Below, in pieces: positions 1,962-22,395 of a DNA stretch of 62,300 bases (the first letter of the stretch is position 1; the number at the start of each line of letters is the position of its first letter). The DNA comes from an uncultured bacterium. Its GTDB lineage: Bacteria > UBA8481. The position numbers were made by a program, and so were the translations under genes. The stretch lies in the NCBI GenBank assembly GCA_964499705.1, contig CAZCME010000001.1, forward strand, positions 134,943 through 197,242, read 5' to 3'. The notes beneath the pieces were generated by a model. The model made no database searches and was not told the origin of the DNA. It worked only from the letters and a program-made list of their open reading frames with translations.

Positions 1962-1974
1962 CCGGTCGATTCAA

Positions 1975-2182: not shown

Positions 2183-2239
2183 GACAACTTGCGTTCCCTG
2201 CGATGGCAAAGTGGGACGGATACGACTCCGATATACGGG

Positions 2240-2275
2240 CGGGGCGTCATGCTGTGCATGGCGCCCCGTTTTTTT
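2240..2275 (+). terminator. Intrinsic terminator, probable expression platform of the cobalamin riboswitch
   Basis: CGGGGCGTCATGC-TGT-GCATGGCGCCCCG followed by T7, between the aptamer and the btuB start. Confidence 0.8.
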
Positions 2276-2329
2276 CGGGTCCTCTCGTCCTGTTCCATCG
2301 TGTGCGAACGTCCCCGATGGAGGGACAGG

Positions 2330-4315: not shown

Positions 4316-4316
4316 G

Positions 4317-6249: not shown

Positions 6250-6282
6250 CTTGCTCTTGAATAGCGCATCGCGGAGGGGCCG

Positions 6283-7389
6283 ATGATGACCGGCGCCGTG
6301 CGCATCGCCGTCTCCATGCTCGCGGTACTGGGCGTCATCGCGCTCTTCGTTATCCCGGGCGAGGGAGGCACGCCGATTCTCGGCATGCGCCCATACGAAA
6401 CGACGCGGATCGACGATCCCAACGGGCCTGGAGGCGATCCCGCGCCGGACGGATTTCCGAAGCGACTCTTCGATCCTTCCGGCGCCGAACAGATCCTCCC
6501 CGAACCGCCGCGTCGGATCGCGTCGATGAACCTCGGCGCCGACGAGATCCTCTGCGCGCTTCTCGATCACGAGCTCGACCGGATCGCCGGGCTGACAATC
6601 TCCGCGTCCGACACGAGTATCTCGAATTGCTATGATCTCGCCCCGCCGGGCTCCGCGCGTTTCGCCGGCGCGATCGAGAGCGTCATCGAGGTCGAGCCGG
6701 ACCTCGTGATCACGTCGCCCGGCACCCGCGCCGAGATCGTTCGCGCGCTCGTCAGCGGCGATATTCCCGTTGTCCGGTTCGGCCAATGGTCCACGCTCGA
6801 GGATCTGAAAGAGAACATCCGCCTGATCGGCAGAAGCGTCGGGAAGAACGAGCGCGCCGAAGAGATCGTCGGGTGGATGGAGGGGAGGATTCGCATGGTG
6901 GCCGCGCGCGTCGCCGGGCGTCCGCGTCCGCGCGTTCTCTTCTGGAACTCGACCGGTCACACGACGGGCCGGAACACGACGATGGGTCAGATGATCGAGC
7001 TGGCCGGCGGACTTAACGTAGCTGCGGAGGCCGGGATCGATCGCTCGACGCCGCTTCCGACGGAGTTCGCGCTCGCGCTCGAGCCGGATGTGATCCTCTG
7101 CTCGACCCGCTCCGTCGTCCGGACGACCCGCGGCTATGAACCCGCCGGTTCGCCGGCGCGGGAATTTCTCGACGATCCGCGATGGCGCAATTCGCCCGCC
7201 GTGAAGAACCGCCGCGTCTACGCGATCAAAGCGGGGTGGTCGACGTCCGTCTCTCATTACGCCGTCCTCGCGCTGGAGGCGATGGCGCGTGGAATCCATC
7301 CGGAGGCATACACGGACACGGATATGATGTCGGCGGAGGATGCGCTGTATACCGCTCTCCATCCCGATCTCGTGCGGCGGCCGCGATGA
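6283..7389 (+). CDS. btuF: Cobalamin/iron-complex ABC transporter periplasmic binding protein
   Basis: PRRIASMNLGADEIL, EPDLVI, MIELAGGLNV, PAVKNRRVY; context. Confidence 0.85.
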   Translation: MMTGAVRIAVSMLAVLGVIALFVIPGEGGTPILGMRPYETTRIDDPNGPGGDPAPDGFPKRLFDPSGAEQILPEPPRRIASMNLGADEILCALLDHELDRIAGLTISASDTSISNCYDLAPPGSARFAGAIESVIEVEPDLVITSPGTRAEIVRALVSGDIPVVRFGQWSTLEDLKENIRLIGRSVGKNERAEEIVGWMEGRIRMVAARVAGRPRPRVLFWNSTGHTTGRNTTMGQMIELAGGLNVAAEAGIDRSTPLPTEFALALEPDVILCSTRSVVRTTRGYEPAGSPAREFLDDPRWRNSPAVKNRRVYAIKAGWSTSVSHYAVLALEAMARGIHPEAYTDTDMMSAEDALYTALHPDLVRRPR

Positions 7390-8420
7390 AGAGCGCCCGA
7401 TTCGTTTCTGCGACCGTGCTGATCGTCGTGCTTCTGTTGGCGACGCTTCTAGGCGGAGTGCTCATCGGCACCGCGCAGATCCCCGCACGCGTTGGCGCGG
7501 GAGCGCTCGCGAAGGCGCTTGGATTCCCCGTCGCGACGACTTGGCGCCCCTGGGTCGACACGATTATCGTGGACGTTCGCCTGCCTCGCGTGATCGTTGC
7601 CGCGCTCATCGGAAGCGCGTTGGCCGTGGCAGGCACCGCGCTTCAGGGGATCTTCCGGAATCCGCTCGCCGACACCGGCGTCCTCGGAGTTTCGGCCGGC
7701 GCGTCGCTCGGCGCGGTCATCTCGATCTACTGCGGACTCGCCGCCACGACGATGTGGGCCCTGCCGGCCTTTTCCTTCATCGGAGCGACGATCACGACGC
7801 TCGCGGTCTACGCGGTCGCGACGCGTCGCGGGCATACTCCGGTCGGAACGCTTCTCCTCTCCGGCATCGCGATCGGTAGTCTCTGCGTCGCGTTGTCATC
7901 GGGAATTCTGTCGCTCGCCCTGAAGAATTTCGAGGTCGGCAAGATGCTCGTCTACTGGATGCTCGGCGGGCTCGACGGCCGCACATGGGACCATGTTCGG
8001 ATCGTCGCGGGACCGACCCTCATCGGGACGGCGATCATCGCGATGCACGCGCGTGAACTCGACGCGATGCTTCTCGGCGAGGTCCACGCCTCCTCGATCG
8101 GAGTGAACGTGCTGGCCGTCCGACGGCGGCTCATCGTCGCGACGTCGCTGATCACCGGCGCTGCCGTCGCCGTCTCCGGGACGATCGGCTTCGTCGGGCT
8201 CGTCGTGCCGCACATCCTTCGGCTCATTCTGGGTCCGGCTCACGGCCGCCTTCTGCCCGTCGTCGCTCTTTCGGGCGCGGTCTTCGTGCTTCTCGCCGAC
8301 ATGGTCGCGCGAACGCTCATCGCGCCCGAGGAGATCCGGCTCGGCGTCGTGACGTCCGTCGTCGGCGCGCCGTTCTTTCTCTGGTTGCTCGCGAAGAAAC
8401 GCGTCGAGGCCGTGATATGA
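7386..8420 (+). CDS. btuC: FecCD/BtuC-family ABC permease
   Basis: VRLPRVIVA, QGIFRNPLAD, SGTIGFVGLVVPH, GAPFFL; ATGA overlap. Confidence 0.9.
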   Translation: MKSARFVSATVLIVVLLLATLLGGVLIGTAQIPARVGAGALAKALGFPVATTWRPWVDTIIVDVRLPRVIVAALIGSALAVAGTALQGIFRNPLADTGVLGVSAGASLGAVISIYCGLAATTMWALPAFSFIGATITTLAVYAVATRRGHTPVGTLLLSGIAIGSLCVALSSGILSLALKNFEVGKMLVYWMLGGLDGRTWDHVRIVAGPTLIGTAIIAMHARELDAMLLGEVHASSIGVNVLAVRRRLIVATSLITGAAVAVSGTIGFVGLVVPHILRLILGPAHGRLLPVVALSGAVFVLLADMVARTLIAPEEIRLGVVTSVVGAPFFLWLLAKKRVEAVI

Positions 8421-9214
8421 ACGCGATCGATCGCGCGTCGCTTCTTGACGCCCGGGGTGTTCGATTCACATACAATGAAACGCCGGTGCTTGGCGGCGCG
8501 GATCTCGAGATCCGGCGGGGTGAGTTCGTCGGGCTGGTCGGGCCGAACGGCGCGGGAAAGTCGACGCTCCTGAAGTCGATCATCGGAATTCTTGTCGCCG
8601 ACGGTGGCGAGATCAAGCTGGACGGCGAAGATCTGAAGAGACTCACCCGGAACCAGATCGCTCGCCGGGCCGCGTTCGTTCCGCAGGACACCGGAATCGG
8701 ATCGGGCTTCACCGCATACGAGGTCGTCGCGATGGGGCGTTTTCCGTATCTCGGGAGGTTCAAGCCCGAGGGTCCGGAGGATCTCGAGGCGATCGAGAGC
8801 GCGTTCAAGGCCACGGAGACCTCCGCGTTCCGCGATCGTCCCATCAACGAACTCTCCGGCGGAGAGCGCCAGCGTGTCATCATCGCCCGCGCGCTGGCGC
8901 AGGACACTCTTCTCACGGTCCTCGACGAACCGACCGCGAACCTCGACCTGTCGCACCAGATCGAAGTGCTCAGCCTGATGCGGGATCTCTGCCGGAACCA
9001 CGGCCACGCCGCGATCGCTGCGATTCACGATCTCGCGTCGGCGGCCCGGTTCTGCGACCGGATCTCGATCGTGTTCGCGGGGCGGATTGTCGCGACCGGC
9101 CCGCCGCGCGATGTTGTCACTCCGGAGAATCTGAAACGGTATTTCAATGTCCGCGCCGTGGTGCGCGAAGAGAGTGGCCAGCTCATCGTGGTGCCGCTCG
9201 CCGCGGAACGGTGA
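8417..9214 (+). CDS. btuD: Cobalamin/iron-complex ABC ATPase
   Basis: GPNGAGKST, LSGGERQ, LDEPT, HDL motifs. Confidence 0.9.
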   Translation: MNAIDRASLLDARGVRFTYNETPVLGGADLEIRRGEFVGLVGPNGAGKSTLLKSIIGILVADGGEIKLDGEDLKRLTRNQIARRAAFVPQDTGIGSGFTAYEVVAMGRFPYLGRFKPEGPEDLEAIESAFKATETSAFRDRPINELSGGERQRVIIARALAQDTLLTVLDEPTANLDLSHQIEVLSLMRDLCRNHGHAAIAAIHDLASAARFCDRISIVFAGRIVATGPPRDVVTPENLKRYFNVRAVVREESGQLIVVPLAAER

Positions 9215-9367
9215 TTGCGCGGAACGATTCGTCAGGATGTGCGAGCTAGAGGACTGGACGCGACTGGTGGACCATGTCGCGCGCGCTGGTGCCGCCGGCT
9301 CCCTTGGGTGGCCGACATAACAGTCGCGGGATTTCGGCTGGAACAGGCCGAGGAAAGGAAGAAGCTG

Positions 9368-9748
9368 ATGACGCAGGAGGAATTGCTCGCGACGTTGAGC
9401 GAGGCCGTGACGCTGGGGGAGACGATCCTGATCGTCCGGAGCGAAGGCGCGATCGCGGAAGTGGTGGGAGTTCATCGATACAGCCTGTCGGACAGTTGGA
9501 TCACGATCGGCCAGGAGAAAGGTTCGCACATCCACGTGAAGTCGGCGGACGTCGCGGCGATCCGCTTCGTGAATACGTACAACGGAAAGCCCGCGAACGG
9601 CGGCCTGGAAGTGCTCGGCCACGACGATCGCGTGCTCCTCAAGATCGCGTTTCGCTCAACGAATCCCAACGGCAAGAAATACGATGCGGAGTATGCGCAA
9701 CGGGTCAACGATCGGCTCGCGCGATTCGCGTTGCCGGTAACGGCTTGA
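9368..9748 (+). CDS. Small cytoplasmic protein, putative HutX/ChuX/HemS-like fold
   Basis: Purine-rich RBS then ATG 9368. The pattern TILIVRSEGAIAEV..WITIG..HIHVK..IRFV..LEVLGHDDRVLLKIAF resembles HutX/ChuX. Confidence 0.5.
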   Translation: MTQEELLATLSEAVTLGETILIVRSEGAIAEVVGVHRYSLSDSWITIGQEKGSHIHVKSADVAAIRFVNTYNGKPANGGLEVLGHDDRVLLKIAFRSTNPNGKKYDAEYAQRVNDRLARFALPVTA

Positions 9749-9776
9749 ATCTCGACAAGAGATAAAGGAGAAAAAT

Positions 9777-10382
9777 ATGTCACAGACCATCGCGGCGAAT
9801 GTCGCGCCGGGCAGAATGATTACGTCGACGAATCTCGACGGATCGATAAGCGAAACATGGGGAATTGAGTGTTCCGAGGAGAAATTGAAGGCGCTTGTGA
9901 AGGAACTCTTCGAGGAGCATTGGAACGAGATCGTCTTCGGACCGTGCGTTCAGGGAGCGGTTTTTGAGGGGCGGATGTTCGCGAAGCCGACCTTCAAATA
10001 TCTAGACGGCTACGCGACGGTCGAGATCGAAGGGAGCGAGGGCTGGCACTTTCATCTCTGCCTCGGTCCGCACAAGGGAACGAAAAACAGACCGACGCCG
10101 CCTGAGCTCGCCGCGTGGAGAAAGTGCACGCGCGCCGCGTTCTTCCGCGACACGGACATTTCGGGCAGGCCCGGCTCGTGGGGCCTGCGGTTCTGGAACG
10201 GCCGCGATGAGCAGATGATGACGGTCTTCTTCCCGGGCCCGTGGTATGACCGCGATGCCGGCAAGTTCCGCAAGGAGCCGGACTGGACGCAGCTCGATCT
10301 CTGGATGGCGCTGCGCGAGAAATACGCGGGTGTCCCGGCGGAAGGCCCGCTGGCATCAGCGGAGGCGCCAAGGATGCACTGA
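9777..10382 (+). CDS. Conserved hypothetical cytoplasmic protein, possibly HemS/HutX-like fold
   Basis: Strong RBS AAAGGAG; FGPCVQGAVFE, LDGYATV, WHFHLCLG, WGLRFWNGRDEQMMTVFF, PDW..LDLW. Confidence 0.7.
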   Translation: MSQTIAANVAPGRMITSTNLDGSISETWGIECSEEKLKALVKELFEEHWNEIVFGPCVQGAVFEGRMFAKPTFKYLDGYATVEIEGSEGWHFHLCLGPHKGTKNRPTPPELAAWRKCTRAAFFRDTDISGRPGSWGLRFWNGRDEQMMTVFFPGPWYDRDAGKFRKEPDWTQLDLWMALREKYAGVPAEGPLASAEAPRMH

Positions 10383-10682
10383 GCTTCGCGCGGGTGAAAC
10401 TCATGCTGCGGCAGGCGCGCGTTTTATCCCATTCCTGGTCCGTGCTTCGTTCGTTCGACTTCGTGCAAAGGTCTGTGCCCGAGGAGGACGTTGCGGATCA
10501 AGATAGCGCTGACTCTTGGCCGGAGAATCTGATATCGTGAACACGATTTGGGGAGACATGAGAGGGAACCATGTGATCGGGAACAGCGGGGGCGCGAGAG
10601 ACGCGAGAATGCGAGCCTGCGACGATATCGGGCGCGAGGATCGGGAAGCCGGGATTCGCGCGGCGATCATGCCGGTCAGTTC

Positions 10683-12272
10683 ATGACTCGAATTACATCC
10701 GGACGGTATGCTGTTCTCGCGCTGCTTCTGCATTTTGCATCCGCGGGATGCGGCGCATCTTCGCCGCCGCCTTCGCCGAACACGATTCCTCCACCGGGTC
10801 CATCCCGTGCGCAATCCTTGCCCCGCTCACAGATCGGCATGAACCTGTCCGGGATCGCAAGCTACTCGACCGCGTTTCCGTTCCTCGATCTTTTCAAGTC
10901 GTCGACGCCCTGGGTCTCGGGTCACGGAGACGTATGGGATGACAAGCGCCGCATTGACGTCGACGAGCACGGTTGGGTGAAATCGCTGGCTCCGGGGCAG
11001 ATCGTTTACACCTCTTTCATTGACTCCGGTGTGCGAGCTCCCGCCGGACAGTACATCGTCGAATATGAAGGCGAAGGCGAGATCGTCTATCAAGAGGGAG
11101 CGCGCCTGATCGAGCACGGGCCTGGGTCTGACGTGATCGAGGTCGATCCCATGCAGGGCAATTGCCTTCTCGCCATCGTTTCCGTAAATCCGCGGAATTC
11201 TCTGCGGAATATCCGGATTCGCCTTCCCGTCCGGGTGCCGATGAGCCAGACGTTCAATCCCGTCTTCCTGGATCGCATAAAAAAATTCAAGACGCTTCGC
11301 TTCATGTGCTCGATGCTGGGCGACAATCCGAAACAGATCGGCCAGCGGAAATGGAGCGAGCGGCCGCGGCTTTCCGATGCCCGATGGGGCGACAAGGGCA
11401 TGCCGATCGAGGTGATGGTCGAGCTCTCGAATCGCATCGGCGCCGATCCCTGGTTCAGTATCCCTCACGAGGCGGAAGACGACTACATCCGGCAATTCGC
11501 CGCGTATGTGCGCGACAACCTCGATTCGAATCTGAAAGCCTGCGTCGAGCATTCCAACGAGGTATGGAACAACATGTTTTCGGTCCACGCGTACGCGACC
11601 CGACGCGGCCTTGAGCTTGGACTATCAACGGATCCATGGGAGGCGCGGTTACGGTACCACGCCCGGCGATCCAGGGAGATCTTCGATATCTTCGAGGAGA
11701 TCATGGGGCGCGAACGGATCGTGCGCGTCCTCGCCGCACAGGAGGATGGTCCCGCCGAGGCGGAAGCGTTGCTCGCCTATGAGGACACCGCAAGGCACGT
11801 CGATGTTCTGGCCATTGGATCTTACTTCGGTTTCGAGCTTGGGCTGCCCGAAAATCAAGCGCGCGTCTCCAGGATGACGGTCGACGAACTATTCCGCGAA
11901 CTCGAGACTGTCTCGCTCCCGTCGACGATGGGGTATGTGCGCGAAAATGCCGCGATCGCCGCCCGGTACGGCATCCCGCTCGTGGCATACGAAGGCGGCC
12001 AGCATCTCTCGGCCGTGATGTTCGGCGTCGACGATCCCGCCATTGACGATCTCTTCGACCGGGCGAATCGTGACCCGCGCATGGGTAGGCTGTACACGAA
12101 GCTTTTCGAGGAGTGGAGCGCCGCATCCCGGGGAGGGCTCTTCCTGCACCTCAATGAATGCAACCCGTTGGGCCCGTACGGTCGCTGGGGGCTGCTGGAG
12201 TATATCGACCAGCCGCGGGAGGAAGCGCCGAAGTATGACGCGGTGATGAAGTGGATGGAAGCGGGACAGTGA
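10683..12272 (+). CDS. Lipoprotein, putative glycoside hydrolase ('cellulose-binding protein'-like, clan GH-A-type barrel)
   Basis: Lipobox-like SAGC; IGMNLSG, PFLDLFK, PWFSIPH, EHSNEVWN (acid/base-like NE), YEGGQH (nucleophile-like). Confidence 0.6.
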   Translation: MTRITSGRYAVLALLLHFASAGCGASSPPPSPNTIPPPGPSRAQSLPRSQIGMNLSGIASYSTAFPFLDLFKSSTPWVSGHGDVWDDKRRIDVDEHGWVKSLAPGQIVYTSFIDSGVRAPAGQYIVEYEGEGEIVYQEGARLIEHGPGSDVIEVDPMQGNCLLAIVSVNPRNSLRNIRIRLPVRVPMSQTFNPVFLDRIKKFKTLRFMCSMLGDNPKQIGQRKWSERPRLSDARWGDKGMPIEVMVELSNRIGADPWFSIPHEAEDDYIRQFAAYVRDNLDSNLKACVEHSNEVWNNMFSVHAYATRRGLELGLSTDPWEARLRYHARRSREIFDIFEEIMGRERIVRVLAAQEDGPAEAEALLAYEDTARHVDVLAIGSYFGFELGLPENQARVSRMTVDELFRELETVSLPSTMGYVRENAAIAARYGIPLVAYEGGQHLSAVMFGVDDPAIDDLFDRANRDPRMGRLYTKLFEEWSAASRGGLFLHLNECNPLGPYGRWGLLEYIDQPREEAPKYDAVMKWMEAGQ

Positions 12273-13612
12273 TGGCGCGACGCCTCTTTTTTGTCGCTAT
12301 CGTCGTTCTGGCGGCGTGCGGCGCGGCGTCAACTTCACCGACGACGCTGGAATCGGAAAAACCGGCCGCGTCGCAACCGTTTCTTATCGGAGCTTTCGTC
12401 GGCGCGAATGTTCACGATTGGGGCGATCTCGCCGGCATGGGATCGGATTCGATCTCGTGCATCCACGCTATCTGCGATGATCTTTCCAAGATGGGGATGA
12501 ATTCTGTCTGGGTGACTGGATTCGCGCCGTTTTATGCCGAGGAACCATTGATGGGAAGCTGGCTTGATGCGGGTCAGATACTGGGCCTGAAAATTGTCAT
12601 CGAGGGAAGCGGCGAGCCCTGGTGCATTCCTCGTCTGCCCGTTGAGCAGGCGGACGAGGTTCTCCTGAAGACCCGCGAGGAGATCGTCCCCGCGTGGCAG
12701 AGCATCGCGCGCACCTACGGGAAACATCCGGCCCTGTTGGCTTACAGCCCCGTCGAAGAGATCGGCGACAACATCGAGCTGGGAGAAAACCATACCGTCC
12801 GAGCGCTCGCGGAAGTCGGTCGAGGCATTGCGCGCATTGACACCGTGCATCCCACCGTGACGATTCATATCGCTTCGTGGCACAGCGTCGCCGTCGAGGA
12901 GGCCCGGCTGCGGAACATATCCTCAAGCCGCGGGGGACTCGGCGCCCTTGTTTTCGATCTCTATCTCTTCTCACATCCCATTCCGGAGTGGTCGGACGTC
13001 GTCGATCAGAAGCTCTCCGTCACACCCGAGGAGATCCCGTCGAAGTATCTCGATTTTCTCGAACGATATGTTGTGTTGGGAGAAGAGAGGGGGGAACCAG
13101 GCAAGCCCGTTCCCGTCTGGATCATGGCGCAGGCATACGGATCGAATTGGATTCGGAAAATCGATGGCAAGATCGTCTCAAAGCCGAATTCCCGATTTCC
13201 AAACGCCGCCGAGATGAGATTCCAGATTTGGGCCGCCGCGCTTGCGGGGGCGAAGGCTATCTACTTTTTTCAGTATCATTCCACGCCTCCGCCGTCCGAG
13301 GCGAACCAGGCCGAGTTGCCCGAATGGGAGGAAGGATTCGGAATCCGACGGCTCGATGGGTCTCCGACGGAGATGCACGAGAGCCTCGCCGCCGCGATTC
13401 GGAGCATCCGCCCGCATCTGGATTTGCTGGGACGCGTTCGAATCGACGGGCCGATGGAACGGGAGGGAAATATTCTTTCAAGGAAATTCCGCGACCCGGT
13501 TTCCGGTAAGCTCTACATAATTCACCTGAACAGCAGTCTGACAGAAAAGGCAACCGGGTCTATCGGCGCTCTCGCCGCCGGCGACGGCAGGATTGTGGAA
13601 ATCGGCCCCTGA
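12272..13612 (+). CDS. Lipoprotein, putative glycoside hydrolase-like TIM barrel
   Basis: Lipobox LAAC; HPALLAYSPVEE, PVWIMAQ, EMRFQIWAAALAGAKAIYFFQY; TGATG coupling to the previous gene. Confidence 0.5.
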   Translation: MARRLFFVAIVVLAACGAASTSPTTLESEKPAASQPFLIGAFVGANVHDWGDLAGMGSDSISCIHAICDDLSKMGMNSVWVTGFAPFYAEEPLMGSWLDAGQILGLKIVIEGSGEPWCIPRLPVEQADEVLLKTREEIVPAWQSIARTYGKHPALLAYSPVEEIGDNIELGENHTVRALAEVGRGIARIDTVHPTVTIHIASWHSVAVEEARLRNISSSRGGLGALVFDLYLFSHPIPEWSDVVDQKLSVTPEEIPSKYLDFLERYVVLGEERGEPGKPVPVWIMAQAYGSNWIRKIDGKIVSKPNSRFPNAAEMRFQIWAAALAGAKAIYFFQYHSTPPPSEANQAELPEWEEGFGIRRLDGSPTEMHESLAAAIRSIRPHLDLLGRVRIDGPMEREGNILSRKFRDPVSGKLYIIHLNSSLTEKATGSIGALAAGDGRIVEIGP

Positions 13613-13635
13613 ATTGAGGAGGGGAAATTTTCCCG

Positions 13636-13779
13636 TCAGCCCGCGATCCTGATCCGGATCAGCGTGATGAACAGGGATATTGCGGTCACCGGCACGCCGA
13701 TCCTCATGTGTTCCCGGAACGTTATGGTCACGCTGTGCTGCCGCGCCCGATAAAAGCGATCCCGGGCCGCCGAAAACAT
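13636..13779 (-). pseudogene. 47-aa remnant resembling the C-terminus of an ArsB/NhaD/SLC13 anion transporter
   Basis: Translates as MFSAARDRFYRARQHSVTITFREHMRIGVPVTAISLFITLIRIRIAG. The TITFREHMRIGVPVT segment is typical of the last helix of this family. Confidence 0.45.
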
Positions 13780-13823
13780 GAGTCTTTCCCTGGATAATAC
13801 TTACCTTATGGTAATAGATTCTC

Positions 13824-13851
13824 TTGACGCGTGGCGAGATCCATCTATCAT
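13824..13851 (+). promoter_or_regulatory. Putative sigma70 promoter of the porin gene
   Basis: TTGACG-N16-TATCAT, the same hexamers as the btu promoter; preceded by the palindrome TTACC-ttat-GGTAA (13801-13814). Confidence 0.55.
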
Positions 13852-13896
13852 GCCGCCAGTCCAGTGAAGAAACGAAGCGGTGAGGTGCGGGGTCGC

Positions 13897-15006
13897 ATGA
13901 AGACGAGGCCGGGTGCGCAGCGGTGGAGCTTCGCCTCGGCACTCATAGTCTCGTGCGCGATGGCGGCATCCGCCGCCGTGGAGATCGCCGGATTCATGGA
14001 CTACCGCTACGATGACGCGGAGAATACGGAAGGCCAGTTTCAGTTCAGGCCGGGCAACGGTGTGGAATTGAGCTTATCCTCGGAACTGTCTCCTCATGTC
14101 ACGGCTCAGGCCACGATCGTATCGGGCGGAGGCGGATTCACGCTCGGCCCGTCCTTCGTCGACTGGAATATCAAGGCGGCGGGAGAACATGACGTCCATG
14201 GTGCCATGGTGGACCATTCGGGTATCCAGGCAGGGCTTTTCGATGTTCCTTTCGGCATCGAATCCCGCTATTACTCGTCCGTGGATCGGCCGACCGTCTC
14301 CGCGCCGTTCCTGACGGCACGGCTCCTCGGTGGAGGTTGGACCGATTATGGTTTCCATGCGTATTTTTCGAACCAGTGTGGCGAAGAGGAGTGTCCGGGT
14401 CCGTTCACGCTCGACCTGTACGGAGTGACCGGGCTGCAGTGGAACGATGGGGCGGATGCGATCCTGGGTACGCTTGACGACGGTCTTGTCACTGTCCCGC
14501 TTACGGCTTTCAGTAATGGACGAACTCTCGGAGGGAGGTTCGGATTCTCCGTTACGGACGGTCTCGAGCTGGGCGGATCCTACGCGCGCGGGGATTACCA
14601 CGCCAACATCGGTGGTATGGACCCCGGGATGACGCTCACGGGATTGGATGTCACCTTGTCGCATGGTGCTCTGGCGGTGAGGGGCGAATACGCGACGTTC
14701 AGCGGCGAGATACCTGCCGGCCCGGACCGGGAGATCAAGACATGGTATATCGAAGCGACCTATGAATGGACGGATAGACTGACGCCTGTCATTCGCTATG
14801 ACGAAATCATGTTCGAATTCGATCGTGACGGTGACGGCCTCCGCAATGACGGGCTTAAAGCCTGGCTGGGCGGGATCAAATATGCGTTGACGGATAACCT
14901 GGCTCTTCGTGCCGAATATCAGATCTACCATTATCAAAAGCCCGGCTTCCAGGTATCCTCTGCCCGCGATCATGGGTTTCGTGCTTCCGCGGTGGCCGAG
15001 TTCTGA
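13897..15006 (+). CDS. Outer-membrane beta-barrel porin-like protein (OprO/OprP-like)
   Basis: Signal peptide, QAGLFDVPFGIE, GGRFG, WYIEATY, alternating beta strands, C-terminal Phe. Confidence 0.7.
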   Translation: MKTRPGAQRWSFASALIVSCAMAASAAVEIAGFMDYRYDDAENTEGQFQFRPGNGVELSLSSELSPHVTAQATIVSGGGGFTLGPSFVDWNIKAAGEHDVHGAMVDHSGIQAGLFDVPFGIESRYYSSVDRPTVSAPFLTARLLGGGWTDYGFHAYFSNQCGEEECPGPFTLDLYGVTGLQWNDGADAILGTLDDGLVTVPLTAFSNGRTLGGRFGFSVTDGLELGGSYARGDYHANIGGMDPGMTLTGLDVTLSHGALAVRGEYATFSGEIPAGPDREIKTWYIEATYEWTDRLTPVIRYDEIMFEFDRDGDGLRNDGLKAWLGGIKYALTDNLALRAEYQIYHYQKPGFQVSSARDHGFRASAVAEF

Positions 15007-15059
15007 TCCGGGAAGCAACGGAGATATTTCCTATACAACATCTCGAAGCCGTATAAACT

Positions 15060-15168
15060 TGATCCGTCTTCGGATCGGCAGGGGAAACCGGGTCATTCCC
15101 GGGCTGTGGCGCAACCGTGATTTCCGTCCATGCATGCGGGCGGGATAAGCCGGGACGCTCTGCTGACC
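15060..15168 (+). ncRNA. Short cobalamin riboswitch (class II / AdoCbl-variant type)
   Basis: GATCCG-tctt-CGGATC, then GGGGAAA-CCGGG-tcatt-CCCGG-GCTGTGGCGCAACCGTGA...AAGCCGGGACGC. It lacks the long peripheral domain and sits upstream of cbtB. Confidence 0.75.
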
Positions 15169-15215
15169 GCACTCTTTTTTGGGCCCTACGCTCTATGGGG
15201 CCGGAAGGAACATCG

Positions 15216-16301
15216 GTGCTCACACATCTTCCGCTTTGTCGTCCTGCCGCGCTTCTTGTTGCGCTCTGTGCCGTGCTGATGCTCTCGGCCGAAGCTCATG
15301 CGGTTCGTATCAACTTCACGACACAGCCCGAATGCAGCGAGATAGGACCCGACAATACGCTCGCCCGCTACACCCTCTCCGTCGTGGATGACGCGGGTGT
15401 GCCCGTCAGGGATGTCCGGCTGAAATACACGCTCCATGCTCCGCCGAAGAACGCATTCTTCAGCACCGATTTTCCCATCGTCGAAGGCACGCCCCTGATG
15501 GAAGCCGACGTCGTCGTTCCGGACGGATCGATGTCCTTCGACTACCTGACGCCCATCCGCGGCGAGTATCGCCTTGTCGTCGAAGCTCATTCGACTGCGG
15601 AAACCGCGGCGTTTGCTCCCGTGACCGATGAAATCAGATACAGGATCGCCGAAAATGCCGACGAGGTCCGGAACGGATTCCTGCTCTTCGCGCTTCTCTT
15701 CGGCATCGGCCTCACTTCCGGTTTCGTGATCGCGCGGCCTCGCTTCGCGCGGCCCGTGCTCGTCACCGCGTCGCTTCTCCTCCTTTTCTCGATGGGCTCC
15801 AGAGACGCCTGGGCGCACGGCCAGAAGCATGGCGCGACCCCCGCCGGCCCGGCGGGAGGCACGACGACGTCCGATTCCGTCGCGCTCTCCGTCGACTTCG
15901 AGCCTGACGGCGGGCGCGTGGGCGAGTTCGTCACGATCCGCGGCGACGTTCGCGACGCCGCGGGACAATCGCTTCCCGGCGCGAAGATCTCGATCCGGCT
16001 CCATCACATCGAGGACGACAAGACGATGTACGAGGGATCCTTCATCGCTCCCGGCGGGCGGTTCGAATGGAAAAATCAGTTCTTCGACGGAGCCGAGCAC
16101 AGGGTCTTTGTCACGGCGTCGCCGCTTGTGGACGGAGCCTTCACGCCGGTCACGTTCGAGTCCGTGATCGATGTCGAGGCGATCGATCCTCCGAATGCGA
16201 TCATCATCCGGACATGGATCTTCCTGGTCGGATTGACCGCCGCGGGCATGGCGTGCGGAACTTTCCTGGCGCGCATCGGCCGCTCGCCCCGCGCGGCATA
16301 A
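15216..16301 (+). CDS. Unknown membrane protein with two Ig-like extracytoplasmic domains and a His-containing linker; putative cobalt-uptake partner
   Basis: GGAAGGA RBS then GTG 15216. Signal peptide, STDFPIVEGT..PIRGEY domain, two TMs, AWAHGQKHG, second beta domain, C-terminal TM. Confidence 0.7.
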   Translation: MLTHLPLCRPAALLVALCAVLMLSAEAHAVRINFTTQPECSEIGPDNTLARYTLSVVDDAGVPVRDVRLKYTLHAPPKNAFFSTDFPIVEGTPLMEADVVVPDGSMSFDYLTPIRGEYRLVVEAHSTAETAAFAPVTDEIRYRIAENADEVRNGFLLFALLFGIGLTSGFVIARPRFARPVLVTASLLLLFSMGSRDAWAHGQKHGATPAGPAGGTTTSDSVALSVDFEPDGGRVGEFVTIRGDVRDAAGQSLPGAKISIRLHHIEDDKTMYEGSFIAPGGRFEWKNQFFDGAEHRVFVTASPLVDGAFTPVTFESVIDVEAIDPPNAIIIRTWIFLVGLTAAGMACGTFLARIGRSPRAA

Positions 16302-16311
16302 GGAGAATCTC

Positions 16312-16500
16312 ATGGCGCAACACAATACGGCGCATCAGCACGCGAAAAAATCGATCGCACTTTCGCTGACCGTTCAACTCGGGTTGGTGCTCGTCCTGGT
16401 CGGCGTCGTTGTCTACACTGTCCTCTTCACGACGTATCCGCCCGTTCACGACTTCTTTCACGAGATTCGCCACTCGCTCCTCATCATCCCATGTCATTAA
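16312..16500 (+). CDS. cbtB: CbtB-family probable cobalt transporter subunit
   Basis: 62 aa, one TM, C-terminal VHDFFHEIRHSLLIIPCH (CbtB His/PCH signature); AAGGAG RBS. Confidence 0.85.
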   Translation: MAQHNTAHQHAKKSIALSLTVQLGLVLVLVGVVVYTVLFTTYPPVHDFFHEIRHSLLIIPCH

Positions 16501-16502
16501 AT

Positions 16503-16625
16503 GGGGTCATTCTCCAACATTCCAACATTGGGGATAAAGAAGTTGCGATTTCAGTGAAAAAATCGGCATTTGACCAAGATCATTACTCCAATGTTCCCAA
16601 TGTTGGAATGTTGGAGAATGACCCC
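16503..16625. repeat. 123-bp element with perfect 30-bp terminal inverted repeats (MITE/REP-like), copy 1
   Basis: GGGGTCATTCTCCAACATTCCAACATTGGG (16503-16532) and its exact reverse complement (16596-16625). Confidence 0.9.
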
Positions 16626-16627
16626 CT

Positions 16628-18583
16628 GTGATCCGCCGTTTTCTTTTCGCCGGTTCCGCACGGCTTCTCATCTATGTCCACGCGCGGCGCAGTGTGGAGT
16701 CCGTTGCTCTTGGCATAAGAATTCTCCAGTCGCAACTTCTGCACGACCCCGGACGCAATATCGATCTTTTCCGGAGCTGCGCGGAATCTTCGGAGTGGAT
16801 TCTCCGTTTCACCGCGGCGCGGTGCGCCGGGGAGTGGCTCCCGTATCACTACGATGAAGCCTTTCGCATCATCCTCGTGCTGGCGCAGGACCAGGACGCT
16901 CGCGTCAGGGAGGGCGTCGGCACCGGGCTTGCGGCTCTCATCGAGCGGTCCTACGATGAATCCCAGCCCGTCGTGCAGGCGCTTCTTCGGCATCCCGCGG
17001 AGCGGGCGCGCGTCTCGCTGGCTCTGTCGCTCATTCCGCTCATGCGACGTCCCGCGGCGGCGATGCATTCCTATCGGCCGCTCCTCGATCAACTGCTGGA
17101 CGATTCTTCGCGAACCGTCCAGAGCGCGCTCGGGAATTTCGTCATCACGCGGACTCTGGCCGCCGTCGATCGCGCGGAAGCAATATCCCTCTTCCGGGAT
17201 GCGGTCGCCCTTCGCCGAAGACGGGCGGCGCTCGATCTTGCGGCAAAATCACTGAGGAAAGTGTATCCTTCCGACGGCACGCTCATGGATACCCTGAACG
17301 CCTACGAACGCATCGATCCGGCTGACGCGGATTTCAGGACGACGGCCGATCTCGCCGTGCCCGACCGTATCGTGGACCAGGTCATCGGCCAGGATCACGC
17401 GGTCGCATTGATTCGACGCGCGGCGATCCAGAAGCGGTCTGTCCTGATGATCGGCGAACCCGGCACCGGCAAGAGCATGCTCGGCGCGGCTCTCGCGGAG
17501 CTTCTGCCCGGCGAGGAATTGGAAGACGTGCTGGCGTGGCCGAACGACGACGATCGCAACACGCCGCGCATCGAGACCGTTCCGGCGGGTGAAGGCTTGC
17601 GGAAACGAGAGGAATCACGCGCGAGGCTTCGTCATCTCGATGTCTCCGTCAACTTCGTCTTCGGTGTCGCCTTCTGCTCGATCCTCACCGTCGGACTCTT
17701 CTATTTCTTCTCGCGGGAGAACATCAACTTTCTCTGGGGAACGCTCGCGGCTTTCGCGCTTCTCGCGGCGGCGCGGGGATACGTCCGGCGCCACGAGCGG
17801 ATCCCCGTCCCGAAAGTGCTCATCAACAACAGCGGCGGCAGCAAGGCGCCCTTCATCGAGGCGACCGGTTTTCATGCGGGCGGTCTCCTCGGCGACGTCC
17901 GGCACGATCCGTTCCAGTCCGGCGGCGTGGAAACGGCGCCGCATGAACTTCTTGAGATCGGAGCCATTCACCAGGCGCACAAGGGAGTTCTCTTCATCGA
18001 TGAAGTCGGCACGCTCGGCATCGAGTCGCAGCAGAGTCTCCTGACGGCGTTCCAGGAGAATAAGCTCGCGGTAACCGGGCGCAGTCCCGGTTCGAGCGGG
18101 ACGATGGTGCGGAGCCAGCCGATCCCGTGCGATTTCATCCTCGTCATCGCCGGGAATTTCGAAGATGTCGAGAAGATGCATCCCGCCCTCAGATCGCGCA
18201 TCCGCGGTTACGGCTACGAGATCGTCATGCGCACTTCCATGGAAGATTCGGCCGGGAATCGGCACAAGCTCGCGCGCTTCATCGCCGCCGAAATCCGCAA
18301 GGACGGCCGCATACCGCATTTCTCCAGGGACGCCGTGGATGCCGTCATCGCCGAAGCGCGTCTTCGTTCCGATGAACCCGGGAACTTGACGATCCGCCTG
18401 CGGGAACTTGGCGGGCTCATCCGCGCCGCCGGAGATCTCGCCGTGGAACGGGGGGATGCGCTGGTGGAACCGATGCATGTTCATCGGGGGCGGGAGGTCG
18501 TGAAGCCGGTGGAGGAACAGTTACGGGGCGAAAAGACTCCTCACGCGGAGGTCACAAGGATCGCGTTTCCCGCATCCGCGTAG
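16628..18583 (+). CDS. HEAT-repeat domain fused to an archaeal-type LonB membrane AAA+ ATPase module, no protease domain
   Basis: HEAT-like LAQDQDARVREGVG; DQVIGQDHAV, Walker A GEPGTGKS, two TMs inside the ATPase, GLLGDVRHDPFQSGG, Walker B VLFIDE, HPALRSRIRGYGYE, LRELGGLIRAAGD. The ORF ends before any Ser-Lys domain. Start uncertain. Confidence 0.85.
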   Translation: MIRRFLFAGSARLLIYVHARRSVESVALGIRILQSQLLHDPGRNIDLFRSCAESSEWILRFTAARCAGEWLPYHYDEAFRIILVLAQDQDARVREGVGTGLAALIERSYDESQPVVQALLRHPAERARVSLALSLIPLMRRPAAAMHSYRPLLDQLLDDSSRTVQSALGNFVITRTLAAVDRAEAISLFRDAVALRRRRAALDLAAKSLRKVYPSDGTLMDTLNAYERIDPADADFRTTADLAVPDRIVDQVIGQDHAVALIRRAAIQKRSVLMIGEPGTGKSMLGAALAELLPGEELEDVLAWPNDDDRNTPRIETVPAGEGLRKREESRARLRHLDVSVNFVFGVAFCSILTVGLFYFFSRENINFLWGTLAAFALLAAARGYVRRHERIPVPKVLINNSGGSKAPFIEATGFHAGGLLGDVRHDPFQSGGVETAPHELLEIGAIHQAHKGVLFIDEVGTLGIESQQSLLTAFQENKLAVTGRSPGSSGTMVRSQPIPCDFILVIAGNFEDVEKMHPALRSRIRGYGYEIVMRTSMEDSAGNRHKLARFIAAEIRKDGRIPHFSRDAVDAVIAEARLRSDEPGNLTIRLRELGGLIRAAGDLAVERGDALVEPMHVHRGREVVKPVEEQLRGEKTPHAEVTRIAFPASA

Positions 18584-18625
18584 TAGAATTAATCCGGCAG
18601 CGCGCTTTTATCAAGGGGGATTCGT

Positions 18626-18976
18626 ATGAATATGCTTGTGAAGCTGGTTCTTTCCGCACTGGCGGTTCTCGTCACCGCCTATCTTCTGCCGGGCGTACAT
18701 GTGGATGGATTCTTTACCGCGCTTGTGGTCGCGGTTGTCCTGGGAATCGTGAACGCCGTCCTGCGGCCGATTCTCTTCATACTCACATTACCCATAAATA
18801 TCATGACGCTTGGATTGTTCACGTTTGTCATCATCGGCGTCTGCGTGCTCCTGGTCTCGGCCATTGTGCCGGGATTCCACGTGGACGGCTTTTTCATGTC
18901 TCTCCTGTTCGCGCTGGTGCTGGCAGTCGTGAATGCGGGATTCGAACTGGTGGCGGGCAAATCCGAGCAGGGGTGA
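18626..18976 (+). CDS. Four-TM 'phage holin family 4'/YvlD-like membrane protein
   Basis: LGIVNAVLRPILFILTLPINIMTLGLFTFVI and VPGFHVDGF motifs. Confidence 0.85.
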   Translation: MNMLVKLVLSALAVLVTAYLLPGVHVDGFFTALVVAVVLGIVNAVLRPILFILTLPINIMTLGLFTFVIIGVCVLLVSAIVPGFHVDGFFMSLLFALVLAVVNAGFELVAGKSEQG

Positions 18977-18979
18977 ACT

Positions 18980-19924
18980 TCAGATCAGGTCTTCGTCCTT
19001 CAGGCTGGCTTCGTAGAATTTCGTGAACTCCGTCCAGTTCTCGCCGTCCATCTGCGCCATCGCCTGCCGCGGGTGCTGGTTCAATATTCCGCAGACCATG
19101 TAAGGAATCTGGTAACCCCACTTGTGCTTCTCCATCATGGACAGGAAGTCCGAGCTGATGAGATCGAGAATGGGCCGGATGTTGAACTTCGGATTCTTGA
19201 GAAACCCCAGCAGGAGCTCGGTCGGGCAGTTGCCGGCGCCGCGACCCATGCCGTAGATCGTGCAGTCGAGATAATTGACGCCCTGGATGATTCCCTCCAC
19301 GGTGTTGGCGAAGGCCAGCTGCTGGTTGTTGTGCATGTGCACGCCGATCTTCTTCCCCTTGCAGAGCGTCTGGTACTTGTTGACGAGATAACGAGCCTGC
19401 TCGCAATAGAGGTAGCCGAAGGAATCGACGAGGTAAACGCCGTCAAGGCCGGTGTCGGCGAGCTGACGGAGCGCCTCGTCGAGATCTGGTTCCAGGGCGT
19501 GCGAAACCGCCATGATGTTGACGAATGTCTCGTAACCTTTTTCCTTGATGTGGTTGGCGAGCGCGATCGCCTTGTCCACGTCCTTGACGTAGCAGGCGAC
19601 GCGCATCGTGTTCACGATGCTCTCGGTCCGGGGGCGGATATCGTCGAGCTCCACGCGCCCGAGATCGACCATTACGGAGATTTTCGTGTCGCAGGGTTCC
19701 GCGACGGCCCGGATGTCCTCCTCAGCGCAGAACTTCCACGCGCCGAATTTCTCGGGCGAGAACTGCTTCTTGGAGGAGAAATACCCGATCTCCATGTAGT
19801 CCACGTTCGCAAGCTTCAAAGCCTGGAAGATGCGGCGGACAAGGTCGTGGCTGAACTGATGGTTGTTGCAGAGGCCTCCGTCTCGGATGGTGCAGTCGAA
19901 GGTCTTGATTTCCGGTCGATACAT
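18980..19924 (-). CDS. DRE-TIM metallolyase, 4-hydroxy-2-oxovalerate aldolase-like catalytic domain
   Basis: DCTIRDGG, YLVDSFG, GVHMHNN, GMGRGAGNCPTE. Start ATG 19924. Confidence 0.8.
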   Translation of the reverse strand: MYRPEIKTFDCTIRDGGLCNNHQFSHDLVRRIFQALKLANVDYMEIGYFSSKKQFSPEKFGAWKFCAEEDIRAVAEPCDTKISVMVDLGRVELDDIRPRTESIVNTMRVACYVKDVDKAIALANHIKEKGYETFVNIMAVSHALEPDLDEALRQLADTGLDGVYLVDSFGYLYCEQARYLVNKYQTLCKGKKIGVHMHNNQQLAFANTVEGIIQGVNYLDCTIYGMGRGAGNCPTELLLGFLKNPKFNIRPILDLISSDFLSMMEKHKWGYQIPYMVCGILNQHPRQAMAQMDGENWTEFTKFYEASLKDEDLI

Positions 19925-19966
19925 GGTCTCTCTTCTTTCGTAATACGGCAAAATACAGGGCAGCAG

Positions 19967-20032
19967 AATACGGGGACAGTATACCATTTTGCGTGAATAA
20001 ATTCACGCAAAATGGTATACTGTCCCCGTATT
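19967..20032. repeat. Perfect 66-bp palindrome (32-bp arms, 2-nt loop)
   Basis: AATACGGGGACAGTATACCATTTTGCGTGAAT-AA-ATTCACGCAAAATGGTATACTGTCCCCGTATT. Confidence 0.95.
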
Positions 20033-20097: not shown

Positions 20098-22395
20098 TCA
20101 GGGCGAAACACCCAGGTCGATGTAGGCGGTCTGGCCCAGGACGACCTTGACGCTTGCGGAGTATCCGCTCCAGGTGATGCTGTACGTTCCCGCCGGAAGA
20201 TCGTAGAACTTGGCCTTCCCGGCGGTTTCGCCCCAGCCGGTTCTCGCGGTCTTGTTCGTATTGCCGGAGCAGGAAACCGTGACGCCCTGCGCGAAAACGA
20301 CCTGGCCGTCCGCGTTGGTTTTCCGGACTGTGGCGACGATGGAGGGAAGGGGAATCGGGGTGAGCGAAAAATTAACCGTCTTGGTCTGTCCCGCTTCGAT
20401 GGTGATGGTGCGCGTGGAACGCTTGAAGTCTTCCGCGATCGCGGCGACGGTATACTTGCCGGGCTGAAGTTCCGCGAAGCTGAAGACGTCGCCGCGGGCT
20501 TCCTGGCCTGTGGAGAGCGTCACGACCGCCGTGGAGATCGCCTCTCCCGTGTTCTTGTTCTTGACCGTGCCCTTGATGATGGTGCCGGATGCGGGCGGCG
20601 TCGATCCGCCTCCGCCCGATCCGCCGCCGCGCGCCCGGGTCACCGCGGCCTTCGCGTTCAGGCGGCCGAATCCATATTTCTGGCTGCGGCCGGACGCGTT
20701 GTACGCCGCGGTCGCTGGCTGCACCTTGTCGGCGGTCTCCTTCAGAATCGCTTCGACCTCGTTGGCGCGCAGGTCGGGATTCACGCTGAAGACGAGGGCC
20801 GCGACTCCGGCCGCGATAGGACAGGCTCCGGATGTGCCGTCGAACTGGTTGCCGGGTTCGTCCGTATAGCTCGTCGACGTGTATCCCTTCGACGCCGCTC
20901 GATCCGTCGCGACGAGCCCGGCCTTGTCACCGTAGCCGGCCGGCGCGACGGCGAAGAGCCGGTCGCCGTAATTACTGTAGGTTGTCCGCTTGTCCTGGTG
21001 CGTCGTCGCGCCGATCGCCAGAACATTGATGTTGTTGGAGAGATCGTTCGTGGTGCCGATGTTCGCGTTCTCATTGCCGCTGGCGAAGAGAACAAGCGTT
21101 CCCTTGCCGCCGCGGCCGGATTTGCGGGCATAGGAAAGAGCGGATGTCACGACGCTGCCGGGATCGGTGTAGCCCCAGGAATTGGACATCACATGCGCGC
21201 CATGGTCGGCGGCCCATCGGATCCCGTCGGCCGTTCCCCGCTCGTCGAGTTCCATCGGCGTCCGGAGAAGCATGAACTTGACGCCCGGAGCCACGCCCGC
21301 GACTCCGCGGTTGTTGTTATGCAGCGCGGCCACAAGTCCCCAGACCGGCGTGCCGTGGTTGTCCGGATCCTCCGGGTCGTTGTCGGCGGGTCGGGGATCA
21401 GATGTATTCCGGACGAAGTCACGGGAATGGACGAGGGCGCCGGCAGGAGGAAGATCCGAATGGCCGATGTCGAATCCGTCGTCGAAGATCGCGACGATCA
21501 CCTGGGAATTGCCGGAAGTGAATCCCCAGGCGCCTTCGGCCGATATGTCCGCGCCAATCGTTCCGGCAGTCTGGCCGGTGTTCTTGAGGTGCCATTGGAG
21601 CTTGTAGAGCGGATCCGCCGGCAAGGCTCTCTTCTTCACCTCGCGGAACCAGTTCGGCTCCGCGTAACGACAAGGCACCGCCTTCACAAGCGCGTTGGCC
21701 GCCTTGAATATCTCCTCCGGCCAGGACGCCGTGGTTTTCAGCAGCCACCATTCGTCCGAACTCGTCGCGGCGCGCGTCACGCTCATGCCGAGCGTCTTGA
21801 CCGTTTCCTTGAAAGCCTCGACCGATACGGTCGGATCCGGGATGACGTTCAACTCTCCCGTCGGCACGACGCGCTCGCCGCTGGGAAGCAGGATGGCCGG
21901 CATGTAGCCATTCTTCCGCAGATCCTCGGCGGCCGTTCCGCGTTCCTCCGCGGTCGGCATCTGCTCCGCTGACGCGGCGATCTCCCGCACATCGCGTGCT
22001 CCGTCGGACAACCGGTAGAACTTCGTGGAGGAATAATAGACAGGCATTGCATTTTCGCCGACGCGCGCGAGTCCCAGCGGCGCCTGGGAAGGAGCCTCAT
22101 GCCCGTCGACGAAGACGAGAGGATCGCGGAGCGAAAAGGGGGCGGCAGGAACGTTGGAAGAGGCGGCCGGCCCGAGGGTGGCTCGCATCTCGGCGGACAT
22201 ATCCGCGAACGCCACAAAGGGGAATTCGCCCGGCTTCAGCGCGCCATCGGTAAACTCCACGAAATGATTCGTCGGGTTCTCGGGACCTGTGAACTTCAGA
22301 GACGTGCTCGAAATTTCAGGCGGGCGCTTCAGGAGAAAGAACGCGAATCCCAGGACGAGTCCGAGCGCCAGCGTGAGTTGCAGGTAACGCTTCAC
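20098..22395 (-). CDS. S8 subtilisin/kexin-like serine peptidase with C-terminal carboxypeptidase-regulatory-like Ig domains
   Basis: Triad IFDDG / NHGT / GTSGACP, oxyanion FASGN, SNSWG, YGFGRLNA; N-terminal TM or signal. Confidence 0.9.
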   Translation of the reverse strand: MKRYLQLTLALGLVLGFAFFLLKRPPEISSTSLKFTGPENPTNHFVEFTDGALKPGEFPFVAFADMSAEMRATLGPAASSNVPAAPFSLRDPLVFVDGHEAPSQAPLGLARVGENAMPVYYSSTKFYRLSDGARDVREIAASAEQMPTAEERGTAAEDLRKNGYMPAILLPSGERVVPTGELNVIPDPTVSVEAFKETVKTLGMSVTRAATSSDEWWLLKTTASWPEEIFKAANALVKAVPCRYAEPNWFREVKKRALPADPLYKLQWHLKNTGQTAGTIGADISAEGAWGFTSGNSQVIVAIFDDGFDIGHSDLPPAGALVHSRDFVRNTSDPRPADNDPEDPDNHGTPVWGLVAALHNNNRGVAGVAPGVKFMLLRTPMELDERGTADGIRWAADHGAHVMSNSWGYTDPGSVVTSALSYARKSGRGGKGTLVLFASGNENANIGTTNDLSNNINVLAIGATTHQDKRTTYSNYGDRLFAVAPAGYGDKAGLVATDRAASKGYTSTSYTDEPGNQFDGTSGACPIAAGVAALVFSVNPDLRANEVEAILKETADKVQPATAAYNASGRSQKYGFGRLNAKAAVTRARGGGSGGGGSTPPASGTIIKGTVKNKNTGEAISTAVVTLSTGQEARGDVFSFAELQPGKYTVAAIAEDFKRSTRTITIEAGQTKTVNFSLTPIPLPSIVATVRKTNADGQVVFAQGVTVSCSGNTNKTARTGWGETAGKAKFYDLPAGTYSITWSGYSASVKVVLGQTAYIDLGVSP

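Follow-up and report, generated by a model that had tools for sequence, protein, structure and literature searches.

The window, that is the whole 62,300-nt stretch of DNA analysed here, comes from an uncultured bacterium (UBA8481; assembly GCA_964499705.1, contig CAZCME010000001.1, positions 134,943 to 197,242), and all coordinates below are window positions. The gene studied is an open reading frame at 16628-18583 on the forward strand, with a GTG start and an uninterrupted frame. Its 651-aa product is predicted to join a HEAT-like N-terminal domain to a LonB-type ATPase that lacks a protease domain. Two genes for membrane proteins lie upstream on the same strand: one (15117-16301) for a 394-aa protein, called IgAB here, that has a signal peptide and a pair of Ig-like domains in the periplasm, and one for a 62-aa single-pass protein of the CbtB family (16312-16500).

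The original prediction had described an intact AAA+ module in this protein, and every motif that it named was found in its place. Walker A (GEPGTGKS, residues 276-283, 17453-17476) and Walker B (VLFIDE, residues 454-459, 17987-18004) enclose a membrane hairpin (residues 339-361 and 366-386, 17642-17785) and the pore-loop-1 motif GDVRHDPFQSGG (residues 422-433, 17891-17926), all on the forward strand. Further along are the motif HPALRSRIRGYG at residues 518-529, LRELGGL at 591-597, and KPVEEQL at 626-632, after which the frame runs for 19 more residues to the stop. The AlphaFold2 (AF2) model, with a mean predicted local distance difference test (pLDDT) score of 80.7, has a helical N-domain (1-228), a long hairpin (322-389), and an AAA+ fold; residues 424-433 of pore loop 1 were modelled with low pLDDT. 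The placement of transmembrane (TM) helices within the ATPase was borne out by three lines of evidence: Kyte-Doolittle hydropathy gave a strong hydrophobic helix at 339-361 and a weaker one at 366-386, AF2 placed helices at 322-363 and 367-389, and the segment aligned with the anchor insert of Thermococcus onnurineus LonB. That protein was the best match in both structural (Foldseek, 3K1J, E 1e-32) and phmmer searches. Against 4ZPX the TM-score was 0.90 at 49-50% identity, residues 234-618 falling onto 25-405 with the membrane insert included. Together with the profile search, this identity upholds the assignment to archaeal-type LonB. Residues 235-632 matched positions 3-398 of the 608 in the NCBIfam LonB profile TIGR00764, which is its ATPase part only, with 501.7 bits; the whole-protein score falls just below the cut-off of 516.6 bits because the protease half is absent. 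TIGR02902 scored 24.9 bits only. A PADLOC scan matched no defence-system model, returning generic AAA+ fragments (RtcR, IetA) for this gene and nothing for its neighbours.

The absence of a protease, and of room for one, was likewise confirmed. No Pfam match to Lon_C was detected in the protein. The next gene begins at 18626, leaving a gap of 42 bp, and is followed by a convergent HMGL-like gene on the reverse strand (18980-19987); with neighbours so placed, no reading frame downstream could fit a protease domain. No separate LonB-type protease was found in the source genome (96% complete), whose sole clear Lon_C belongs to a LonA-sized frame on another contig. As judged from its sequence, the window protein is thus a LonB-type, membrane-tethered motor with intact ATPase motifs and without proteolytic capacity. 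Since the ATPase and pore-loop motifs are all intact, it may plausibly act as a non-proteolytic unfoldase or dislocase.

Residues 1-228 (16628-17311, forward strand) form a HEAT/ARM-like domain of about 14 helices (AF2 pLDDT 83-90). The claim that some 230 residues of HEAT-like helices precede the ATPase held in that the region is a helical solenoid and its relatives pass the HEAT_2 (PF13646) threshold; the window sequence itself stays below it (25.6 bits at residues 48-133, cut-off 27.7). Homologous N-domains scored above the cut-off in a Chloroflexota locus where the domain has its own gene (L102, 33.4 bits) and on an archaeal contig (L013, 42.2 bits). A single-sequence search with residues 1-235 against 1.84 billion representatives retrieved just 29 proteins at E≤1e-3, and 12 of the 14 N-domain relatives scanned were HEAT_2 proteins. 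Modelled alone, the domain was all-helical (pLDDT 83), and Foldseek matched this model to ARM/HEAT proteins only, weakly (E 5e-4 to 5e-3, TM-score 0.3-0.5). Sequence and model thus support a HEAT/ARM solenoid. The positions conserved in alignments of this domain are of the "D..VRE" type, a pattern typical of HEAT repeats, and no Cys or His is conserved. Because the conserved positions are of HEAT type and no Cys or His is among them, we infer that the domain is a protein-binding adaptor rather than a metal site.

The protein has close counterparts of the same extent. P0002 is 77% identical to it over 99% of its length and has identical ends. In 18 more relatives of the alignment (41-46% identical), several of them from contigs of 1.4 to 4.3 Mb, the chain likewise ends soon after a conserved "LEEQ" C-terminal to the LID domain. 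The 153 LonB-type sequences were sorted by what flanks the ATPase. The canonical architecture was found in 79 rows, an N-terminal extension without a protease in 42, an N-terminal extension plus a C-terminal domain in 16, and the ATPase only in 16, some of the short forms (e.g., P0078) being fragments. The proposed architecture search was carried out, and HEAT plus LonB-ATPase without Lon_C recurs in other bacterial proteins. ATPase domains were also placed in two unrooted trees built with quick methods (FastTree, 153 rows; IQ-TREE quick mode, 74 rows). Both trees part an archaeal canonical group from a mostly bacterial one with a Shimodaira-Hasegawa-like approximate likelihood ratio test (SH-aLRT) value of 99. 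The bacterial group holds every N-extended and every ATPase-only form together with a few of canonical length, and at least 14 changes of architecture are needed within it. The motor itself is conserved throughout: Walker A (with minor variants) and Walker B, the pore-loop-1 aromatic (F/Y), the arginine-finger region, and sensor 2 are kept in all 74 aligned rows. Pore loop 2 reads GRSxGSSG in the bacterial group and GQSERSSG in the archaeal one.

The protease domain had a different history. Among the 95 proteins possessing a C-terminal domain, the catalytic serine (GDSAS) was found in 65 of 65 archaeal-type rows and in none of the 30 others, which have E, D, G, I, P, or K in its place and mostly keep the lysine. 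HEAT plus LonB with a full-length but serine-less protease domain was found in P0003, P0004, P0022, and others; P0003 is the HEAT-bearing nearest outgroup of the window protein and matches TIGR00764 over its full length (530.6 bits). Because the protease domains retained in this clade lack the serine in 30 of 30 cases, the alignments indicate that proteolysis was inactivated first and the domain deleted afterwards, several times, with the window gene as an end point of the series. The gain of HEAT and the loss of the protease are separate events, since the clade holds HEAT with a serine-less protease, ATPase-only forms, and forms with HEAT as a split gene. The "clean domain swap" of the original prediction is contradicted by this diversity.

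The genes directly upstream proved to be the conserved partners. The CbtB-family protein matched PF09489 with 29.5 bits (cut-off 27) and did not reach the narrower NCBIfam equivalog TIGR02459 (19.3 bits against 64.4). It has one TM helix (12-45) and a His-rich C-terminus with the motif HDFFHE[IL]RH...CH, where the invariant pattern is HD.FH..RH......CH (four His and one Cys), and it is 52% identical to the Chloroflexota copies. IgAB is a fusion of two genes, IgA and IgB, that are separate in Chloroflexota: BLASTP aligned it to a 183-aa protein (41%, E 8e-36) and to a 203-aa protein (42%, E 2e-29). By alignment and hydropathy both halves have the same layout, a periplasmic Ig-like domain and then a TM helix. 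IgAB matched nothing in Pfam or NCBIfam, and the Atlas returned clusters of "hypothetical protein" only, with weak YtkA/FixH-like leads (TM-score <0.5).

The gene order CbtB-like, IgA, IgB, (HEAT), LonB ATPase was observed in the window, in all six of the Chloroflexota genomes with a LonB-type gene, and in seven metagenome loci. The six genomes were those with a LonB-type gene among the 401 Chloroflexota genomes sampled, in each case directly after CbtB-like, IgA, and IgB, and an IgA profile search of the same 401 returned exactly these six; the six are kin and do not count as six independent events. Across the 14 ATPase-bearing loci HEAT is fused to the ATPase in six, split in two, and absent from six. 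In the two Chloroflexota genomes with the split form (L102, L103) it is a gene of 243 aa that overlaps the 414-aa ATPase gene by 4 nt. One Chloroflexota locus (L098, genome G252), at first taken for a canonical LonB on account of its 610-aa frame, is really HEAT plus ATPase without a protease and lies inside the cassette.

As a control we considered 80 loci with an ordinary LonB, taken from the contig scan on the basis of a full-length alignment (almost all archaeal LonB; 78 of the 80 matched the alignment over its ATPase part only), and 77 of them carry no cassette gene. Of the exceptions, L056 is one of the Chloroflexota loci again (G041), and L019 has a weak HEAT match only. The archaeal contig L013, a 3.4-kb piece of a metagenome-assembled genome, carries a 640-aa LonB in which Lon_C is present and the catalytic serine is missing. 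On one side of this gene is a divergent 292-aa HEAT gene, again separate from the ATPase, and on the other a convergent CbtB gene of 65 aa. The same genome has another LonB, an ordinary one, on contig L017.

With IgA as the seed, a metagenome scan returned 50 loci (47 distinct), and this choice of seed biases the set towards the cassette. CbtB-like, IgA, and IgB follow one another in nearly all of them. Where at least 600 nt follow IgB (27 distinct loci), seven loci continue into a LonB ATPase, one of them (L104) with HEAT, and L104 is collinear with the window at 70-73% DNA identity over the alignable parts. The CbtB-like protein and IgAB are conserved operon partners of the LonB ATPase across phyla.

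Several observations link this module to the B12 regulon. A cobalamin riboswitch (RF00174, 107.6 bits, E 1.1e-25) lies at 1963-2194 on the forward strand and heads a co-directional string of genes (2012-18976) that includes the ATPase. The riboswitch and the BtuB-type uptake set that follows it occupy 1963-9214, the set consisting of genes for a TonB-dependent receptor, ExbB, ExbD, a 321-aa protein, a binding protein, FecCD, and an ABC ATPase; the 321-aa gene, between those of ExbD and the periplasmic binding protein, is unassigned. The same string continues (9215-13612) with a ChuX/HutX-like gene, DUF7676, and two large proteins without Pfam matches (574 and 453 aa), which may be undescribed corrinoid-handling genes; after these come a porin-like gene and the cassette. 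The riboswitch scan covered 47 of the 50 metagenome loci, and of the 37 distinct loci with at least 250 nt upstream, 17 have a cobalamin riboswitch (Rfam) immediately before the cassette and in its orientation, as have five of the six ATPase-bearing metagenome loci. At L115 the ATPase is followed by CbiX, and at L118 the cassette has CobQ on one side and a corrin methylase on the other. One N-extended LonB with a serine-less protease domain (P0093, 978 aa) is naturally fused to BluB, the 5,6-dimethylbenzimidazole (DMB) synthase; the BluB part is a full domain (TIGR02476, 256.7 bits against a cut-off of 150). The source genome encodes CbiX, CbiC, and CbiB. A search of it for CbiM, CbtA, and CobN found none, with a weak match to the NicO family only. 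Going by these genes, the organism requires cobalt and has none of the usual dedicated importers. The literature describes CbtAB, along with other Cbt proteins, as predicted cobalt transporters of the B12 regulon (PMC2667541, PMC8123684), and knock-down of cbtB is reported to relieve cobalt toxicity in M. capsulatus (PMC13108547).

We favour, as fairly probable, the reading that the window protein is a non-proteolytic, hexamer-forming, membrane-anchored accessory motor of a cobalt module of the B12 regulon, because the identity of the motor, the synteny, the co-occurrence in six Chloroflexota genomes, the control loci, the links to B12, and the serine-less clade all point to it. The CbtB-like protein and IgAB would most likely acquire cobalt or hand it over for B12 synthesis, and the window gene would probably help to supply cobalt, not degrade proteins. 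The core of such a module would be the CbtB-like protein, with its one TM helix and His/Cys-rich C-terminal motif, and IgAB. The ring would sit under the membrane with its entry face towards it, an orientation reportedly described in the T. onnurineus LonB structure paper. Spending ATP, it would pull on or remodel a part of a module protein that is exposed to the cytoplasm, and this pulling might gate, reset, or extract a metal-loaded complex. HEAT would be the docking adaptor for the client, fused here and encoded separately or absent elsewhere. The original prediction of a membrane unfoldase or dislocase with a HEAT recognition module thus stays plausible, the motifs being intact; what it had not seen is the cobalamin-regulon context of the upstream partners.

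A number of points weigh against this reading. The local operon is probably headed by a gene for a porin-like outer-membrane protein (13897-15006, forward strand; weak OMP_b-brl match), and no riboswitch was detected before it at 13300-14100, even at E≤1. The only riboswitch of the window is 13 kb upstream of this operon, and a shared transcript is putative, as is B12 control of this copy of the cassette. Five Chloroflexota loci show no riboswitch within the flanks scanned. The ATPase is missing from 20 of the 27 distinct cassette loci that extend 600 nt or more downstream, and one 100% complete genome (G625) has IgA and no LonB-type gene. Because these 20 loci and G625 keep module genes without it, the ATPase is an optional extra in a more widespread module of two to three genes. 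In the direction from ATPase to cassette, the association rests on the window, six related Chloroflexota genomes, and one archaeal contig. The cobalt role of CbtB is itself mostly predicted, and it is possible that the module handles a corrinoid instead of Co2+.

The same synteny would also fit a shut-off device, in which the motor extracts CbtB or IgAB and passes them to FtsH, LonA, or Clp, or simply disassembles them, and so stops cobalt entry; the ATPase would then act as a negative regulator once the cell has enough cobalt or B12, and would not help uptake. We consider this unlikely. In its favour, cobalt in excess is toxic, and the activity of CbtB can do harm, according to the M. capsulatus report (PMC13108547). 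The occurrence of the module without the ATPase in many loci is what would be expected of a regulator, and on L013 the neighbours of a full-length LonB are HEAT and CbtB, each as a gene of its own. However, the protease domain of L013 is also without its catalytic serine, so that degradation by the Lon domain itself is unlikely even there. The ATPase moreover shares a riboswitch-repressed operon with its supposed targets and would be made only when uptake is wanted, and the C-terminus of the family shows, by inspection only, no docking motif for another peptidase.

A general unfoldase or dislocase for the quality control of membrane proteins, with HEAT as the recognition module and an incidental link to the cassette, would have nothing to do with cobalt. 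The intact translocation machinery and the membrane anchor are compatible with such a function, and ordinary LonB is described as a membrane quality-control protease (PMC9569914, PMC4343526). The tight co-location and co-occurrence with CbtB and IgAB, the BluB fusion, and the riboswitch-controlled operons argue against it. The gene is also rare and patchy, unlike a housekeeping gene: the window ATPase gene was found in none of the 400 other bacterial genomes and none of the 40 relatives searched. We regard this explanation as improbable.

A bolder version of the accessory motor, which we rate as quite improbable, is a protein shuttle, in which the ring pulls the metal-loaded CbtB-like protein through or out of the membrane and thereby imports cobalt. 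The CbtB-like peptide would bind metal by its His/Cys motif on the outer face, and the LonB-derived ring would grip its short cytoplasmic N-terminal tail and spend ATP on each delivery. In present-day forms HEAT would hand the cargo on to B12 synthesis (CbiX, or fusions of the BluB type). Ancestral forms with an active protease would have destroyed the shuttle. If it were true, metal import would be energised by an AAA+ unfoldase, and no transporter of this type is known to date.

It had also been suggested that the motor works with the adjacent YvlD-like protein of four TM helices (18626-18976, forward strand; PF04020, E 1.1e-32). Its family identity is strong, and in the window the two genes lie on the same strand, 42 bp apart. 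However, a single-sequence profile, which can miss very distant homologues, detected no PF04020-like gene in the other 13 ATPase-bearing loci, 10 of which include downstream sequence, and other genes follow the ATPase there: ilvB with a T-box, a Cu/Zn superoxide-dismutase-like gene, or CbiX. Tested by conservation of neighbourhood (0 of 10 loci), the gene is a neighbour and not a conserved partner, the conserved partners lying upstream, and joint action of the two proteins is very improbable. As for a recent truncation, a pseudogene, or an assembly chimera of an ordinary LonB, the TIGR00764 score just below the cut-off and the missing protease half are all that could suggest it, and an open, stop-free frame, fully conserved motifs, the 77% identical homologue with the same ends, and 20 aligned relatives from long contigs (up to 4.28 Mb) that stop alike make it vanishingly improbable; the concern that all close homologues might carry Lon_C is answered by P0002 and the 18 other relatives.

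Other features of the loci are recorded here. A consensus scan placed a promoter-like site (TTGACG-16-TATCAT) at 13824-13851 on the forward strand, before the porin-like gene. The scan gave six sites in total against 4.0 expected, which is not significant; going by this site, the cassette of the window may have its own transcription start. A second promoter-like site, at 1934-1961 before the riboswitch, has identical hexamers and spacing. A 383-aa gene occupies the position of the porin-like gene at L104, and since the similarity is marginal (E 0.011) homology is not claimed. At L112 a Cu/Zn superoxide-dismutase-like gene (10257-10844) comes directly after the ATPase with a 4-nt overlap, and the riboswitch is separated from the CbtB-like gene by an unassigned gene of 469 aa. 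T-box leaders were observed before an ilvB-like gene just downstream of Chloroflexota cassettes (L099, L100, L101, L136). Elsewhere in the window, a large secreted subtilase (Peptidase_S8) with CarboxypepD_reg and other Ig-like C-terminal domains is encoded on the reverse strand at 20098-22395, and the region 52000-62000 has an AT skew of +0.10 to +0.31 and a GC skew of about +0.1, unlike the remaining window.

According to a review, every Lon enzyme combines ATPase and protease in one polypeptide chain (PMC9569914). The mostly bacterial branch described here is one in which the protease was first killed and then shed while every part of the motor was kept, and the same branch is tied to a B12-regulated set of small metal-linked membrane proteins. 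If that link is true, AAA+ machines would have acquired a new role, with an unfolding motor taking part in trace-metal supply, and a new component would be added to the "Cbt" proteins, which are candidate cobalt transporters and poorly understood. A search of the open-access literature found nothing linking LonB to cobalt, riboswitches, HEAT repeats, or loss of the protease domain. There is also a warning to annotators of genes currently named LonB protease: source records of protease-less or serine-less members (e.g., in Brevibacillus, Paenibacillus, and Chengkuizengella) carry the name "ATP-dependent protease LonB", which is not supported for proteins that, on their predicted sequences, cannot be proteases.

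Among known systems, archaeal LonB (TIGR00764, MEROPS S16) is the closest in the motor, with an AAA+ module 49-50% identical to that of the window protein and the same insert, LID, and pore loops. Unlike it, the window protein carries HEAT at its N-terminus and lacks the protease domain. It falls in the sister clade, which is mainly bacterial (SH-aLRT 99) and has GRSxGSSG in place of GQSERSSG. The window gene is rare and tied to an operon, unlike a housekeeping gene. The window protein has the B-type AAA+ module with Walker A and B, the arginine finger, and the sensors, as well as the anchor insert; an insert between Walker A and B is given as the feature that defines true archaeal LonB as against the "LonBA" of Bacillus (PMC9569914). 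LonBA bears the same database name as the relatives of the window protein. It is described as lacking the membrane-anchor insert in its AAA+ module and keeping its protease (PMC9569914), and the window protein is the opposite on both counts.

The module resembles CbtAB in its small CbtB-family protein, in riboswitch control at many loci, and in the nearness of B12-biosynthesis genes. No Pfam match to CbtA (PF09490) was detected in the cassette proteins or in the source genome; the module differs from CbtAB in having IgAB in the place of CbtA, and in the AAA+ ATPase added in a subset of loci. LonC (MtaLonC, PDB 4FW9 and others; structural match E 5e-9 to 2e-7) is a Lon relative too, with one of its two activities degenerate. 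It keeps the protease and its ATPase is inactive, and the clade of the window protein is its reverse, with the ATPase intact and the protease dead or gone. Msp1/ATAD1 are membrane-tethered hexameric AAA+ extractors with pore loops and no attached peptidase. The window protein may work alike, although its AAA+ clade is a different one (Lon/HCLR) and no homology is claimed; the anchor of Msp1/ATAD1 is an N-terminal helix, and that of the window protein is an internal hairpin.

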